Virus record (IMG/VR): IMGVR_UViG_2740892230_000026
Source of the DNA: a virus
Taxonomy: Duplodnaviria > Heunggongvirae > Uroviricota > Caudoviricetes
DNA: 5,223 nt
Reading direction: 5' to 3' (one strand)
The notes beneath the pieces are model-generated. The model searched no databases and was not told where the DNA came from. It saw only the letters and a list, made by a program, of their open reading frames with translations. Of the stretch, positions 1 through 5,223 are shown in pieces (within the stretch, counting starts at the first letter, position 1; every line of letters starts with the position of its first letter). The translations under genes and the position numbers were made by a program.

Positions 1-22
1 TAACACTGTGTTACCTGGCTAA

Positions 23-646
23 TCAGAATTTATAGCCGATACCCACGATGAAGCCGTCAGTGCGCCAGTCGCCACTGGCGGAACCTTCATAAGCAAGGTC
101 AATAACCACCGTCTCTACGGGACTGAACTGAATCCCGGCATTCCAGGCCGGCGACAGATGACGCGCAGTATGGCCATCACTGGCGGTGGTGGTCTCCTTC
201 ACATACCCCGGTTTCACTTCATCACGCCGGTAATCCTGAACACTGTCAGACCAGCGGGTGTACGCCATCCCGGCCATGCCATAGAGACTGACCCGCTCAC
301 TGAGCTGCCAGACAGGGCCGGCCATCAGACTGACATAACGACCGCGCAGGCTTTCATAATGGAAGGTATTTTCACCCGTCTTCATCGTGTCACTTTTCTT
401 CACCGATGCATAACTCAGCGCGACAATGCCGCCCAGGTGATCCGTGAACTCATAACGGTATTTCACATTAATCCCTTTTAAATCACCTGCACGCGCACCG
501 GTACCGGACAATGCCGGTACGCCGCCCGGGTGAACCTGAGCATATCCCACGGAAAATGCACCGTGTCCGCTTTCAGCCTGTGCAGGAAGGGAAATGCCTG
601 TCAGCAGTGCGGTCCAGAATAAAATGGCTCCGTATAAATGTCGCAT
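23..646 (-). CDS. lom: Lom-family outer membrane beta-barrel protein (Ail/Lom/PagC/OmpX family), lambdoid prophage lysogenic-conversion gene
   Basis: Complete 207-aa ORF on the minus strand: ATG at 646..644, TGA at 25..23. A GAGAGG Shine-Dalgarno-like motif sits about 5 nt upstream of the ATG. The N-terminus MRHLYGAILFWTALLTGISLPAQA/ESG looks like a signal peptide with an AxA cleavage site. The C-terminus ends ...DWRTDGFIVGIGYKF, the aromatic terminal residue typical of beta-barrel outer membrane proteins. The motifs NVKYRYEFTD and AYEGSGSGDWRTDGFIVGVGYKF match my recollection of phage lambda Lom, and the gene sits immediately downstream of J as in lambda. Confidence 0.9.
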   Translation of the reverse strand: MRHLYGAILFWTALLTGISLPAQAESGHGAFSVGYAQVHPGGVPALSGTGARAGDLKGINVKYRYEFTDHLGGIVALSYASVKKSDTMKTGENTFHYESLRGRYVSLMAGPVWQLSERVSLYGMAGMAYTRWSDSVQDYRRDEVKPGYVKETTTASDGHTARHLSPAWNAGIQFSPVETVVIDLAYEGSASGDWRTDGFIVGIGYKF

Positions 647-670
647 GATGACCTCTCGTTTTCAGTCAAT

Positions 671-695
671 AAAAAAGGCACCTCCTGAGGTGCCC
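671..695 (-). terminator. Rho-independent terminator downstream of J (analogous in position to lambda tJ)
   Basis: On the minus-strand transcript the sequence is GGCACCU-CAGG-AGGUGCC, a 7-bp GC-rich stem with a 4-nt loop (plus coordinates 677..694), immediately followed by UUUUUU (plus A-run 671..676). It lies 19 nt after the J stop codon (716..714) and before the lom ribosome-binding site. The T-tract is on the minus strand only, so it terminates minus-strand transcription only. Confidence 0.55.
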
Positions 696-713
696 GTCCG
701 GGTTAATAAACCG

Positions 714-2369
714 TCAGCTGATACTGATCCCTGCTGTGGATTTTTTCATGACCACAACCAGTAAATCACTGATGTACGTTGTCGGCGTCCAGTTGTTCGC
801 ACCGGCCGACGACACATTAAACGTCAGGGTGACATGACCCCGCCCTGCCGGCATATCTATCACCGATGAGAACACCCGGCTGACATCCGTTGCCGGTTCA
901 TGGAAAATCTCAACCCCGTTCTTCAGCACCTGCAGCTTACAGGTGGAATACCAGTACGACTGCTGATTCGGGCTGTTGAAATTCTGGTGTTTCGTCCCGC
1001 GAAACAGCACCGGGGGAATGATGATCTGCCGGTCGAAGCCCTGGTCATCGTAAACTGTGACGGTTACCGTCCCGCTGGCATAACTGTTATTCCGGGGAAA
1101 GGCTTTCCCCACCGTCTTCACCAGGTCGCCTTCAATCTGGTTTGCAGACAGTTTCCCTCTGATGACACAGTTCTCGTTAATGGTGACATTATTGAGCGTG
1201 CCGGTATTCGCGGTAATTGCTCCGCTGATATCCGCGTTCCTGGCTGTCAGCTTCCCTTCCGGCGTCAGGGAAAACGTCGGGGGGTTGCCGGATGACGTGA
1301 TACTCACCGCAAACAGTCGTTTCAGGAACACGTCGTNNNNNNNNNNCGGCGTCAGGGAAAATGCCGGAGGATTGCCGGATGACGTGATGCTCACCGCAAA
1401 CAGTCGTTTCAGGAACACGTCGTTCATGAACAGCTGATTCCCCTGCGCCACAAATAACGGCGTGCTGTTGCCGCTCTCCGGATTTATCATCGCGATACGG
1501 TCAGCCAGCAGCAGTATGTTGCTCAGTGGCTGGCCATCAGTATCCTCAATCCCTGCACCAATCCCGGCCACATAGGGTATGCCATTTTTTGTTTTCTGTA
1601 CCTTCAGCATGTAAAGTGCAGCAAGGTCATCATTTGTGTCCTTCTGCACGCGCTGTANNNNNNNNNNAATGCCGTCTTTCGTTTTTTGAACCTTCAGCAT
1701 GTACAGCGCAGCCAGGTCATCATTTGTGTCCTTCTGCACGCGCTGTATCTGCTGTATGGTGGCGCTCTGGTCCTCCAGCGTTTTACTGACCGTCTGTGTG
1801 ATTTCATTGCGGGTTTCGGTGATGGAGGTCTTCATCTCCGCCATCTCATCCGCAAGCTGGCTGTTGTCTATCAGCTCCCACAGCCCCTGAGCCAGATGCA
1901 GTTTTCCTATTTTTTCCCGAAACAGCCCCAGATACCCTTCTGCATCATTGCTGGCCCGGCCACTGGCTTCCACAAAAGCAGATTTCCCCACCAGGTTGAC
2001 GCTGCGCACGTNNNNNNNNNNCGTGATGCTGGTCTTCATCTCCGCCATCTCATCTGCAAGCTGGCTGTTATCTATCAGTTCCCACAACCCCTGAGCCAGA
2101 TGCAGTTTTCCTATTTTTTCCCGGAAAAATTCCAGATACCCTTCACCATCATTGCTGGGCTGCCCGCTGACTTCCACAAACGCAGATTTCCCCACCAGGT
2201 TGACGCTGCGCACGTAAAACCAGAAATCCTTCCCGGGCTTAATGTGCGGGCCGGATACACTCCACTGACTGCCGGTCCCCAGATAACGGGCAGAGGTTTC
2301 CACCTGAGATGTGTCTGCGATTTTTGCCTCCGAAAACCAGAACTCAAACTGTACCGTCGGGTCATACAC
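714..2369 (-). CDS. J: gpJ C-terminal fragment as an ORF caller would see it (part of the J locus, not a separate gene)
   Basis: Six-frame ORF of 551 aa ending at the authentic J stop (716..714). The apparent start at 2369 is an internal GTG; the J frame continues upstream (...[19 protein letters not shown]). It crosses the N runs at 1337..1346, 1658..1667 and 2012..2021 and so contains duplicated peptides, for example [19 protein letters not shown][A/T]FSLTP twice and [14 protein letters not shown]... twice. Confidence 0.6.
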
Positions 2370-5223
2370 CGCAAGACGCGGGACCGCTGTTATCTGAAAA
2401 TAGCCCGGTGTCAGCTCAATCGTGGCGGGTACCGCAGGTGCATTAATCCTGAACGTGGTGGTGGCCGGTTCCCCCTGCTGGCCATAACTGTTAATCGCCC
2501 TGACTGTCAGGGTGTATTCCCCNNNNNNNNNNCGTTATCTGAAAATAGCCCGGTGTCAGTTCAATGGTGGCGGGTTTTGCTGGCGCGTTAATCCGGAAGG
2601 TGGTGGTGGCCGGTTCGCCCTGCTGGCCATAACTGTTAATTGCCCTGACCGTCAGGGTGTATTCCCCCGGCGGCANNNNNNNNNNGGGCGGCAGACCACT
2701 GAAACGATGCTCTGTATCCGCAGTGATGGCGGTGGTCACCAGACGGCTGTCTTCTCCGCTTCCGCTGGTCAGGCGCAGACTGAAGCGCACACCCTTCANN
2801 NNNNNNNNCGGCGGCAGACCGCTGAAACGGTGCTCTGTATCCGCGGTGATGGCGGTGGTCACCAGACGGCTGTCCTGACCGCTTCCACTGGTCAGGCGCA
2901 GACTGAAGCGCACGCCCTTCACCACCCGCGGCGTGTCCCATTTCGCCTGTGCCAGATACTGACCGTCAGCCGCGCTCACCTCCACCGTGAGGTGCTGCAC
3001 TGCCGGTGGGATGACGCTGTTCAGGGAACCTGACTGCGGCTCAAAGCGGGCACCGTTATCCANNNNNNNNNNATATTCCCCGCTGTCTGCGGTGACTTCG
3101 GCGGTCAGGTGCTGCACCGCTGGAGGGATGACGCTGTTCAGGGTGCCTGACTGCGGCTCAAAGCGGGCACCGTTATCCACGATGGCTTCTTTTTCCGGTA
3201 CGTGCTGCACCGCCGTGATGGCAAAGGTGCCGTCCGTGTTTTCCCGGACGGAGACACAGCGGAACAGGCGACGGCGCAGTGACGGCAGGGAGAGTCCCCA
3301 CACCCCGTATGTCTCCACACCATCAGGCAGGGTACTGACCTGTATCCGGTCCGGCGCGGGGTGTTCGGTGATGTCCACACTCACTGGCTTACCGCTGCCG
3401 TTAATCAGGTTCACCGTGGCGGCACCTGTCTCCGGCAGGGTCACCTCACGGTCCAGTGTCAGGGTGCGGCTGGCGGCATCGATGGACAGGATACGTCCGC
3501 CGGTCATGGTCCCGGCATAGTCGTTANNNNNNNNNNAAGTGTCACTTCACGGTCCAGCGTCAGGGTGCGGGTGGCAGCATCAATGGACAGGACACGTCCG
3601 CCGGTCAGGGTCCCGGCATAGTCGTTANNNNNNNNNNGCTCTGGTCGCCGTCAAAGTGCGCTCCGTTATCCACGATGGCTTCTTTTTCCGGTACGTGCTG
3701 CACCGCCGTGATGGCAAAGGTGCCGTCCGTGTTTTCCCGGACGGAGACACAGCGGAACAGGCGACGGCGCAGTGACGGCAGGGATAGTCCCCATACACCG
3801 TATGTCTCCACACCATCAGGCAGGGTGCTGACCTGTATCCGGTCCGGCGCGGGGTGTGCGGTGATGGCCACACTCACCGGCTTACCGCTGCCGTTAATCA
3901 GGTTCACCGTGGCGGCACCGGTCTCCGGCAGTGTCACCTCACGGTCCAGCGTCAGGGTGCGGCTGGCGGCATCGATGGACAGGACACGTCCGCCGGTCAT
4001 GGTCCCGGCATAGTCGTTATCACAGATTTCAATAATGTCACCGGGTGTGTGACGCAGCCCCTGTGACCCGAGCGTGAAATCCACCGTCTGCGTTTCCAGC
4101 AGTCCGGTCTTTATCACCCACAGCCCGGCACGGTGGGCCTGACCGCGACTGGTGCAACCGAACGCATCCATCTTCAGCAGGTTGCGCCCGTAGCGCAGTA
4201 TGGCTTCCGGGTCTTCCACCANNNNNNNNNNTCGGTCTTTATCACCCACAGTCCGGCACGGTGGGCCTGACCGCGGCTGGTACAGCCGAACGCGTCCATC
4301 TTCAGCAGGTTGCGTCCGTAGCGCAGTATGGCTTCCGGGTCTTCCACCAGTTCCGTGGAGGTCTGCCAGCCGTTCTGCGGGTCGGTGTAATTCACCTCCA
4401 CCGCCGTGTGCCGGTCCTTCAGGGCACTGAAGCTGTAGCGGAATCCCACGCCGTTATCATCCACCACCACATCGCTGTTGGTGTACGGCCACACCACATC
4501 CGACGGGCGGTCCTGAACGAACGTCAGCGTCTGGCCGTTCCATACCGGCATACAGCGCATCGCCGAGCAGAAATCACTGAGAACGTCCCACGCCTTACGC
4601 TGTTGTGACAGGTACGCATTAAAGGTCATCCGCGGCTCTGTGCCCCCGAAACCATCCGGGACCGTCTGGTCGCAGTACTGCCCGATGGCATACAGCGCCC
4701 ACTNNNNNNNNNNCCCTCCGAAGCCGTCCGGGACACGCTGGTCACAGTACTGCCCGATGGCATACAGCGCCCACTTGTNNNNNNNNNNTCCCACACCTTC
4801 ATTGTCAGCCACCACATCACTGTTTGTGTAGGGCCACACCACATCTGACGGACGGTCCTGCACAAACGTCAGCGTCTGCCCGTTCCATACCGGCATACAG
4901 CGCATCGCCGAGCAGAAATCACTGAGAACGTCCCACGCCTTACGCTGTTGTGCCAGGTACGCATTAAAGGTCATCCGCGGCTCGGTCCCCCCGAAACCAT
5001 CTGGGACCGTCTGATCGCAGTACTGCCCGATGGCATACAGCGCCCACTTGTCCACATCCGCGGCCCCCAGGCGTTTTCCCATGCCGTAGCGCGGGTGAGT
5101 CAGCATGTCCCACAGGCACCAGGCCGGGTTGTTGCTGTATGCCGGTTTCAGGCTGCCGTCCCAGATGCCGCTGTACGTGCGTTTTTCCGGGTCATAGTTT
5201 GACGGTACCTGAATGATGCGACC
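714..5223 (-). CDS. J: host specificity protein J / tail tip central fibre (gpJ), 5'-partial (N-terminal part lies beyond the window), interrupted by 12 N10 assembly gaps with redundant overlapping blocks
   Basis: The minus-strand frame is open from the window edge: 5223->5104 translates to [41 protein letters not shown], continuing [44 protein letters not shown]..., which I recognise as the gpJ region that follows the N-terminal portion. Further J-like stretches follow in order down to the TGA at 716..714: ...[16 protein letters not shown]..., ...[34 protein letters not shown]..., ...[29 protein letters not shown]..., ...[18 protein letters not shown]..., ...[15 protein letters not shown].... 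Gene order J then lom matches lambda. The true reading frame is broken and re-entered at the N runs, so a single clean translation cannot be given from this assembly. Confidence 0.88.
2491..3507 (-). CDS. J: gpJ central fragment (artefactual ORF piece of the J locus)
   Basis: Six-frame ORF of 338 aa with J-like sequence ([34 protein letters not shown]..., [14 protein letters not shown]..., [17 protein letters not shown]...). It crosses the N runs at 2523..2532, 2676..2685, 2799..2808 and 3063..3072. Its stop at 2491 is created by the frame shift at the 2523..2532 gap and is not a real gene end. Confidence 0.5.
3605..4249 (-). CDS. J: gpJ central fragment (artefactual ORF piece of the J locus)
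   Basis: Six-frame ORF of 214 aa with J-like sequence ([30 protein letters not shown]..., [40 protein letters not shown]...). It crosses the N runs at 3628..3637 and 4222..4231. Its start and stop are by-products of the gaps. Confidence 0.5.
   Translation of the reverse strand: MGDKDRXXXXVEDPEAILRYGRNLLKMDAFGCTSRGQAHRAGLWVIKTGLLETQTVDFTLGSQGLRHTPGDIIEICDNDYAGTMTGGRVLSIDAASRTLTLDREVTLPETGAATVNLINGSGKPVSVAITAHPAPDRIQVSTLPDGVETYGVWGLSLPSLRRRLFRCVSVRENTDGTFAITAVQHVPEKEAIVDNGAHFDGDQSXXXXTTMPGP
4174..5106 (-). CDS. J: gpJ N-proximal fragment (artefactual ORF piece of the J locus)
   Basis: Six-frame ORF of 310 aa beginning at an internal Met ([14 protein letters not shown]...). The authentic frame is open further upstream to the window edge at 5223. 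It crosses the N runs at 4222..4231, 4704..4713 and 4779..4788, and [13 protein letters not shown][T/R]VPDGFGG appears three times because of redundant blocks. Confidence 0.5.
   Translation of the reverse strand: MLTHPRYGMGKRLGAADVDKWALYAIGQYCDQTVPDGFGGTEPRMTFNAYLAQQRKAWDVLSDFCSAMRCMPVWNGQTLTFVQDRPSDVVWPYTNSDVVADNEGVGXXXXKWALYAIGQYCDQRVPDGFGGXXXXWALYAIGQYCDQTVPDGFGGTEPRMTFNAYLSQQRKAWDVLSDFCSAMRCMPVWNGQTLTFVQDRPSDVVWPYTNSDVVVDDNGVGFRYSFSALKDRHTAVEVNYTDPQNGWQTSTELVEDPEAILRYGRNLLKMDAFGCTSRGQAHRAGLWVIKTXXXXWWKTRKPYCATGATC

Follow-up and report, generated by a model that had tools for sequence, protein, structure and literature searches.

What does the receptor-binding end of the J protein encoded at this locus recognise, and how far has it departed from that of phage lambda? 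The stretch of DNA analysed here (the window, 5,223 nucleotides) includes, on its minus strand, the last part of a J-like gene. A sequence-only reading of it had proposed that the C-terminal end of J is clearly diverged from lambda gpJ, and that it plausibly contacts a different outer-membrane receptor or a variant of LamB. We compared this end of J with lambda gpJ, with engineered gpJ chimeras whose receptor has been published, and with the J genes of phage records and complete E. coli genomes.

The 3'-end of J and the composition of the window

Translation of positions 714-1316 on the minus strand was identical to the peptide quoted in the sequence-only reading. When the last 206 amino acids of J were translated (717-1334, minus strand), residues 78-206 matched the Pfam family PF12421 (Ig_GpJ_C) over profile positions 4-135 of 135, with E=1.4e-39 and 135.7 bits against a cut-off of 26.2. 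The best match in a search of solved structures was not lambda gpJ but the gpJ called A8 gpJ 713 (PDB 9wca/9wcb, E=6e-101), and the lambda gpJ structures 8xcj/8iyk came next (E~1e-56). The profile score and the matches to solved gpJ structures bear out the proposal that the domain is the part of a lambda-like J that binds the receptor. Lambda J could be placed on the window pieces in order, from aa 240 to 1131, at 37-83% identity (tblastn). The feature is the 3'-end of a J gene, whose product is the tail tip attachment protein or central tail fibre, with lom after it; the lambdoid prophage from which it comes is of a type carried by Shiga-toxin-producing E. coli and related strains.

The coordinates of the features are collected in Table 1. 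The fibre segment that precedes the receptor-binding domain (RBD) is conserved and includes the identity stretch ending in NADISG, in which lambda G964 corresponds to window positions 1221-1223; lambda aa 964 is the fusion point used for engineered gpJ chimeras (PMC11338833). A Pfam Bactofilin match in this beta-prism region was rejected, with 17.1 bits against a cut-off of 27.9, as a resemblance between beta-rich repeats. An AlphaFold2 single-sequence prediction of the last 206 aa was unusable (mean pLDDT 47.4, pTM 0.38).

The gene that follows J, 67 nt downstream and on the same strand, encodes a product 65% identical to lambda Lom and is labelled 'Ail/Lom family outer membrane beta-barrel protein' in the matching genomes; the J-lom order is also that of lambda and of phage BP-4795. 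Between the two genes lies the terminator-like hairpin GGGCACCTCAGGAGGTGCCT, followed by T6, which has to be read as a pattern match only, since the scan gave one site and 0.7 were expected from shuffled sequences.

Upstream of this region the window cannot be read as a single continuous DNA, since it contains 12 runs of N, each exactly 10 N long. Adjoining pieces overlapped by 61-369 nt at only 86-96% identity when compared with each other, and they mapped to overlapping intervals of lambda J (for example aa 240-382, 298-318, 299-454, 417-610 and 484-635; tblastn). Because neighbouring fragments overlap at such identities, the part of the window beyond the first piece is a patchwork of several J paralogues and not one gene, and the pattern looks like a scaffold of short contigs drawn from several J paralogues of a genome with many lambdoid prophages. 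The J pieces were 89-99% identical in DNA to the J gene of BP-4795. Long open reading frames on the plus strand, antisense to J (e.g. 1686..2591), were rejected as genes; they cross N spacers, and coding on the strand opposite them is well supported. Contiguous J sequence in the window is confined to the last 206 codons, compared with the roughly 1,130-1,160 aa of an intact frame. These codons belong to the piece 1..1336, which is free of N runs, has an open reading frame intact throughout and carries the whole RBD finding, so that the finding is unaffected by the patchwork.

Table 1. Features of the window. Lambda residue numbers refer to gpJ.
Feature	Position	Strand	Basis
lom-like gene, Ail/Lom outer-membrane beta-barrel, directly downstream of J	23..646	-	PF06316, E=5.5e-49
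Terminator-like hairpin between the J stop and the lom start	676..695	-	Consensus scan
J stop codon, TGA	716..714	-	Read from the sequence; translation ends ...GISIS*
Ig-like C-terminal RBD of J, 129 aa, corresponding to about lambda aa 1000-1132	717..1103	-	Pfam PF12421
Site adjoining the loss of one residue present in lambda (R1103, close to specificity residue 1107)	804..806	-	Alignment
Segment HEPATDVSR, at the lambda ~1070-1078 hot spot, with most of the difference from the A8 RBD	876..902	-	Comparison with A8
5-aa insertion QQSYW relative to lambda, after T1053; same insertion in A8 gpJ	951..965	-	Alignment
Loss of four residues present in lambda (E1010-V1013, among them specificity residue 1012), after codons N82-N83	1086..1091	-	Alignment
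Distal central straight fibre (beta-prism), lambda aa ~927-999	1104..1336	-	82% / 62% identity
Twelve further J fragments with 10-N spacers between them, lambda aa ~240-951	1347..5223	-	N runs, tblastn and overlaps

Divergence from lambda gpJ

Lambda gpJ, which binds LamB (PDB 8xcj, 8xck, 8iyk), is homologous to the window J in its hub, FNIII, helical shaft, beta-prism and Ig-like RBD modules. In a global alignment, identity to lambda was 82% over lambda aa 927-964 and 62% over 965-990, and it fell to 43.5% in the RBD (64 of 147 columns, lambda aa 991-1132), far below the 90% above which the sequence-only reading would have regarded the C-terminus as not diverged. The lambda gpJ tail quoted in that reading matches the J of J02459 at every residue. 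The scaffold motifs FDRQI, FRG.K, DMPAGRG and GIS, which had been called conserved, are indeed common to the window J and lambda gpJ in the alignment.

The upstream parts of J had been described as much closer to lambda. By tblastn, the window pieces showed 81-83% identity to lambda at aa 240-454, 66-71% at 417-635, 53-58% at 600-683, 61% at 686-850, 37% at 789-873 and 62% at 853-951. The J of BP-4795 (1,158 aa, contiguous and with an identical RBD) was used as a stand-in for a comparison with lambda module by module, and gave 76% identity in the hub domains, 64% in the FNIII region, 64% in the beta-prism and 43.5% in the RBD. Its alpha-helical shaft (lambda 809-861) was only 26% identical and carried a 28-aa insertion (21+7 aa). 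The description is only partly right, because the helical shaft has diverged further than the RBD, and the RBD is among the most diverged modules of J without being the most diverged one.

This distribution of differences can be set beside a published survey of 1,207 natural J homologues (Maddamsetti et al. 2018, PMC6646904), in which a disproportionate share of the variation fell in the specificity region (960-1132). Indels in J cluster at 1012, 1048-1049, 1077-1078 and 1107 in that work, the second and third of which are also considered here over the wider ranges 1048-1053 and ~1070-1083, and the specificity region recombines as an independent module. Further indel peaks lie upstream of it, some of them nested, and these fit the 21+7-aa insertion in the helical shaft. 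We used the published hot spots as proxies for the lambda RBD loops L1-L4, whose ranges are displayed only in figures in PMC11101478. The three indels that separate the window RBD from lambda all fall at these hot spots and touch three of the four. A LamB-type domain would combine high identity to lambda with the lambda loop lengths at 1012, 1048-1053, 1077 and 1107, a combination that the window RBD lacks. The pattern of divergence is a textbook instance of documented J variation, and the view that lambdoid phages are already known to vary in this way agrees with the published modular exchange and indels of J aa 960-1132.

Relation to A8 and the probable receptor

A8, the nearest characterised relative, is a chimera that takes residues 1-964 from lambda gpJ and its C-terminus from the J of a natural E. 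coli prophage (Brodel et al., Nature 2024, PMC11338833). It was built, together with a second chimera, 1A2, so that lambda-derived particles would use OmpC in place of LamB. [quoted passage not shown] The two chimeras differ in range, since A8 uses the OmpC of both K-12 and EDL933 and 1A2 only that of EDL933 (bioRxiv 10.1101/2022.09.30.509847), and 21 of 23 OmpC variants were reached by one or the other (PMC11338833; bioRxiv 2022; bioRxiv 2025). A search of solved structures with E. coli OmpC showed that PDB 9wcb holds an A8 gpJ chain together with a chain named 'Outer membrane porin C', indicating that the gpJ(A8)-OmpC complex has been solved; a literature search found no paper describing PDB 9wca/9wcb.

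The window J was identical to the natural part of A8 (after lambda aa 964) at 130 of 168 positions (77%), without gaps. All three indels that distinguish A8 from lambda are present in the window J, and both its length and its loop lengths are the same as those of A8. Over 170 aa (the 168-aa natural part with the S and G that come before it) there were 38 substitutions, which were unevenly spread: one of 11 residues differed in the segment around 1012, three of 21 at 1048-1053 and two of 14 at 1107, and the differences peaked in the ~1070-1083 segment, with 7 of 13 residues, where the A8 version is IFNQSTTDAQGVF.

Since A8 has identical loop lengths and uses OmpC, the analogy between the two domains suggests that OmpC is probably the receptor of the window RBD too, possibly with a preference of its own among OmpC variants. 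Relative to lambda gpJ, the RBD of the window would then differ in its likely receptor, OmpC instead of LamB, as well as in sequence. Of the two options put forward in the sequence-only reading, a different outer-membrane receptor is the one favoured by this comparison with A8, and the LamB variant is the less likely. That the domain still binds LamB, perhaps a variant of it, and has diverged from lambda by neutral drift or by adaptation to LamB alleles, would be in keeping with the shared fold family and scaffold motifs; we consider it very improbable, given the low identity to the lambda RBD, the indels at all but one of the four specificity hot spots and the behaviour of a much closer relative, A8, which needs OmpC and functions in cells deleted for lamB.

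The OmpC assignment has its limits. A very small number of substitutions can change the receptor that gpJ uses, four being enough to give lambda J access to OmpF (PMC6646904), and HEPATDVSR, the segment that differs most from A8, lies at a published specificity hot spot.

Another outer-membrane protein, be it OmpF, another porin or a different beta-barrel, might be bound instead and operate the same trigger mechanism. Such a reading draws on the 23% of positions that differ from A8, concentrated as they are at a known specificity hot spot, on the ease with which lambda J gains OmpF, and on the J of Salmonella prophage Gifsy-1, whose C-terminal region is about 18% identical to lambda and which binds OmpC, OmpX and BtuB (PMC12312913), implying that J RBDs can be promiscuous. 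It appears a minor though appreciable possibility, because the loop lengths equal those of A8, all but one of the four hot-spot segments are almost the same as in A8, and OmpC was the receptor of both tested chimeras with J tails from natural E. coli prophages.

OmpC is also used by other lambdoid central fibres, namely those of phage 434 and of the EHEC phage phi330 (PMC12502783) and the J of Gifsy-1. In each of them a siphophage tail tip of the lambda type has its J homologue aimed at a trimeric porin, but the RBD classes differ from that of the window. Phi330, 434 and lambda are 35-40% identical in pairs (PMC12502783), and the RBD of WGPS6, the closest relative of phi330, was 41.7% identical to the window RBD. 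Because quite different RBD types use OmpC, RBD class and receptor are not related one to one. For A8 the use of OmpC has been demonstrated, whereas for the window allele we infer it, because few substitutions can retarget gpJ, the ranges of A8 and 1A2 differ, and unrelated RBD classes use the same porin. In the searchable literature we found no experiment on the exact allele of the window, and a literature search gave nothing relevant on receptors for the alleles of PhiR47_2, Lambda_ev and 3W, which are 89% identical to it.

With OmpC as the probable receptor, the way in which the tail tip would be triggered can be proposed by homology with lambda, for which the gpJ-LamB mechanism was described by Ge and Wang 2024 (PMC11101478). 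By analogy with lambda, three Ig-like RBDs would sit at the distal end of the J trimer fibre, and their bottom loops (four in each RBD in lambda) would enter the extracellular lumen of the trimeric outer-membrane porin. Binding to the porin would move the bases of the RBDs apart, and new hydrogen bonds would make the beta-prism more compact and twist it. Next the helical shaft would flip, the FNIII strings would be released and the hub domains would shift, so that the tail tube could open for ejection of the DNA.

Allele classes and distribution in E. coli

The last 200 aa of the window J were 100% identical in 23 phage records, among them BP-4795, Stx2 phage 1717 and Stx1a-, Stx2a- and Stx2c-converting phages, and 99.0-99.5% identical in three more. 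The 387-nt RBD DNA was found at 99% identity or more in 387 of 5,426 complete E. coli genomes, and an RBD class about 77% identical in a further ~620 or so. The whole piece 1..1336 was 99.0-99.5% identical to STEC and EPEC chromosomes. In genome annotations the RBD matches are named 'gpJ: phage attachment tail tip protein J' or 'host specificity protein J', and some copies are labelled as fragments, for example 'phage tail tip domain-containing protein'.

Judged by sequence identity to the window allele, the RBD alleles among the phage records form discrete classes: 100% (the window allele, with BP-4795, 1717 and many Stx phages), ~89% (Lambda_ev, 3W and PhiR47_2), 74-77% (the A8 class, with Turner, Chlobot and Stx1a_1602), 56-58% (WGPS2 and PPompW), ~44% (lambda and HK629) and 41-43% (2851, mEp460 and WGPS6). 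The natural part of A8 is 100% identical to the class of Turner, Chlobot and Stx1a_1602, and thus represents a different allele class from that of the window. BP-4795 (ORF72, NC_004813) and phage 1717 (NC_011357) have an RBD without any substantive difference and the same J-lom arrangement; the window differs from them in that its upstream J comes from several paralogues and in a somewhat different lom.

The copy in the window could belong to a defective, non-inducible prophage and have no function at present other than as a recombination stock for co-resident lambdoid prophages, which would be compatible with any of the receptors considered above. Single genomes carry matches of the RBD type, at any identity, in up to six places and matches to the J-lom junction piece in up to 13, some of the copies are annotated as fragments, and in the window several J paralogues are collapsed into one patchwork. 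We regard a functionless copy as quite unlikely, as the reading frame is intact across the first piece and the same 200 aa stand unchanged in 23 Stx-converting phage genomes that were deposited as phages, as would be expected if purifying selection kept the domain working.

The allele is already known, a catalogued and very common version of a well-understood module, and there is little new biology in it: variation in J specificity has been published, the allele has been deposited and annotated hundreds of times, and the receptor of a close relative has been characterised both genetically and structurally. Of modest practical value is its closeness to the A8 class, which binds OmpC: from it the receptor of BP-4795, 1717 and other long-tailed Stx phages can be predicted directly and the prediction put to the test. 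This is relevant to how stx genes spread and to the engineering of lambda-derived delivery particles. In long-tailed Stx and other STEC prophages the J receptor domain most often met with is the window allele, and it might discriminate among OmpC variants (accepting, for instance, the O157-type but not that of K-12, as is reported for 1A2) or might use, by way of HEPATDVSR, a receptor that is neither OmpC nor LamB. We think either property unlikely; if true, such discrimination, or such a receptor, would help to set which E. coli lineages acquire toxin-carrying phages.

Composition of the window

The window contained 12 N runs, each exactly 10 N long. Because the sequences flanking each one of these runs overlapped one another over 61-369 nt with 86-96% identity, and the pieces of the window matched overlapping intervals of lambda J, our sequence comparison indicates that the window is a set of short contigs of several J paralogues scaffolded together, and not a single contiguous gene. 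ORFs spanning the N runs, which carried X residues, were rejected as artefacts.

Features of the window and their coordinates
Feature	Window position	Strand	Remarks
lom-like Ail/Lom outer-membrane beta-barrel gene	23-646	-	207 aa; downstream of J
GC-rich hairpin GGGCACCTCAGGAGGTGCCT then TTTTTT	676-695	-	Pattern match only
Alpha-helical shaft piece of J	~1668-2011	-	Carries the equivalent of the lambda shaft (aa 809-861)
N runs, first six	1337-1346, 1658-1667, 2012-2021, 2523-2532, 2676-2685, 2799-2808		
N runs, last six	3063-3072, 3527-3536, 3628-3637, 4222-4231, 4704-4713, 4779-4788		

Receptor-binding domain and shaft of J

The receptor-binding domains (RBDs) of J in E. coli lambdoid phages fell into discrete classes according to their identity to the RBD of the window (100%, ~89%, 74-77%, 56-58%, ~44% and 41-43%), the phage records behind these classes including NC_004813, LR595860, PP925837, AP012537, J02459 and NC_049945. 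In the engineered A8 gpJ, the portion of natural origin was 100% identical to phages Turner, Chlobot and Stx1a_1602, and two J copies may be present in one Stx2a phage record (two places per record).

The shaft of J (lambda aa 809-861) diverged from lambda even more than the RBD did. The shaft piece of the window was 37% identical to lambda, and that of the contiguous J of the Stx phage BP-4795 (locus L004, 1414-4890) was 26% identical and bore a 28-aa (21+7) insertion. The shaft of lambda J flips on triggering, and part of it is refolded to beta-strands (PMC11101478).

Genes near J in related phages

The J tail of the lambda-like phage 1H12 (NC_049947) was 85.5% identical to that of the window, and just past the tail fibre region of this phage (L002, 7356-8600) we observed genes annotated as the manganese ABC transporter permeases SitD and SitC, which are an uncommon cargo in a lambdoid phage. 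In BP-4795, the side tail fibre genes were followed downstream by inserted IS3-family transposase genes (L004, 7296-9206), which adjoin the J-lom-stf module whose RBD is common to the window.

The lom-like gene and the J-lom intergenic hairpin

The lom-like product was 65% identical to lambda Lom. When piece 1..1336 of the window was compared with the J-lom region of BP-4795 by blastn, a single HSP of 96% identity was obtained, which started at window position 621 and left most of lom outside the alignment. The intergenic hairpin was localised between the stop codon of J (714-716) and the start codon of lom (646); the scan for terminator-like hairpins found one, against 0.7 expected. By its pattern this hairpin looks like an intrinsic terminator, which would part late tail transcription from lom.
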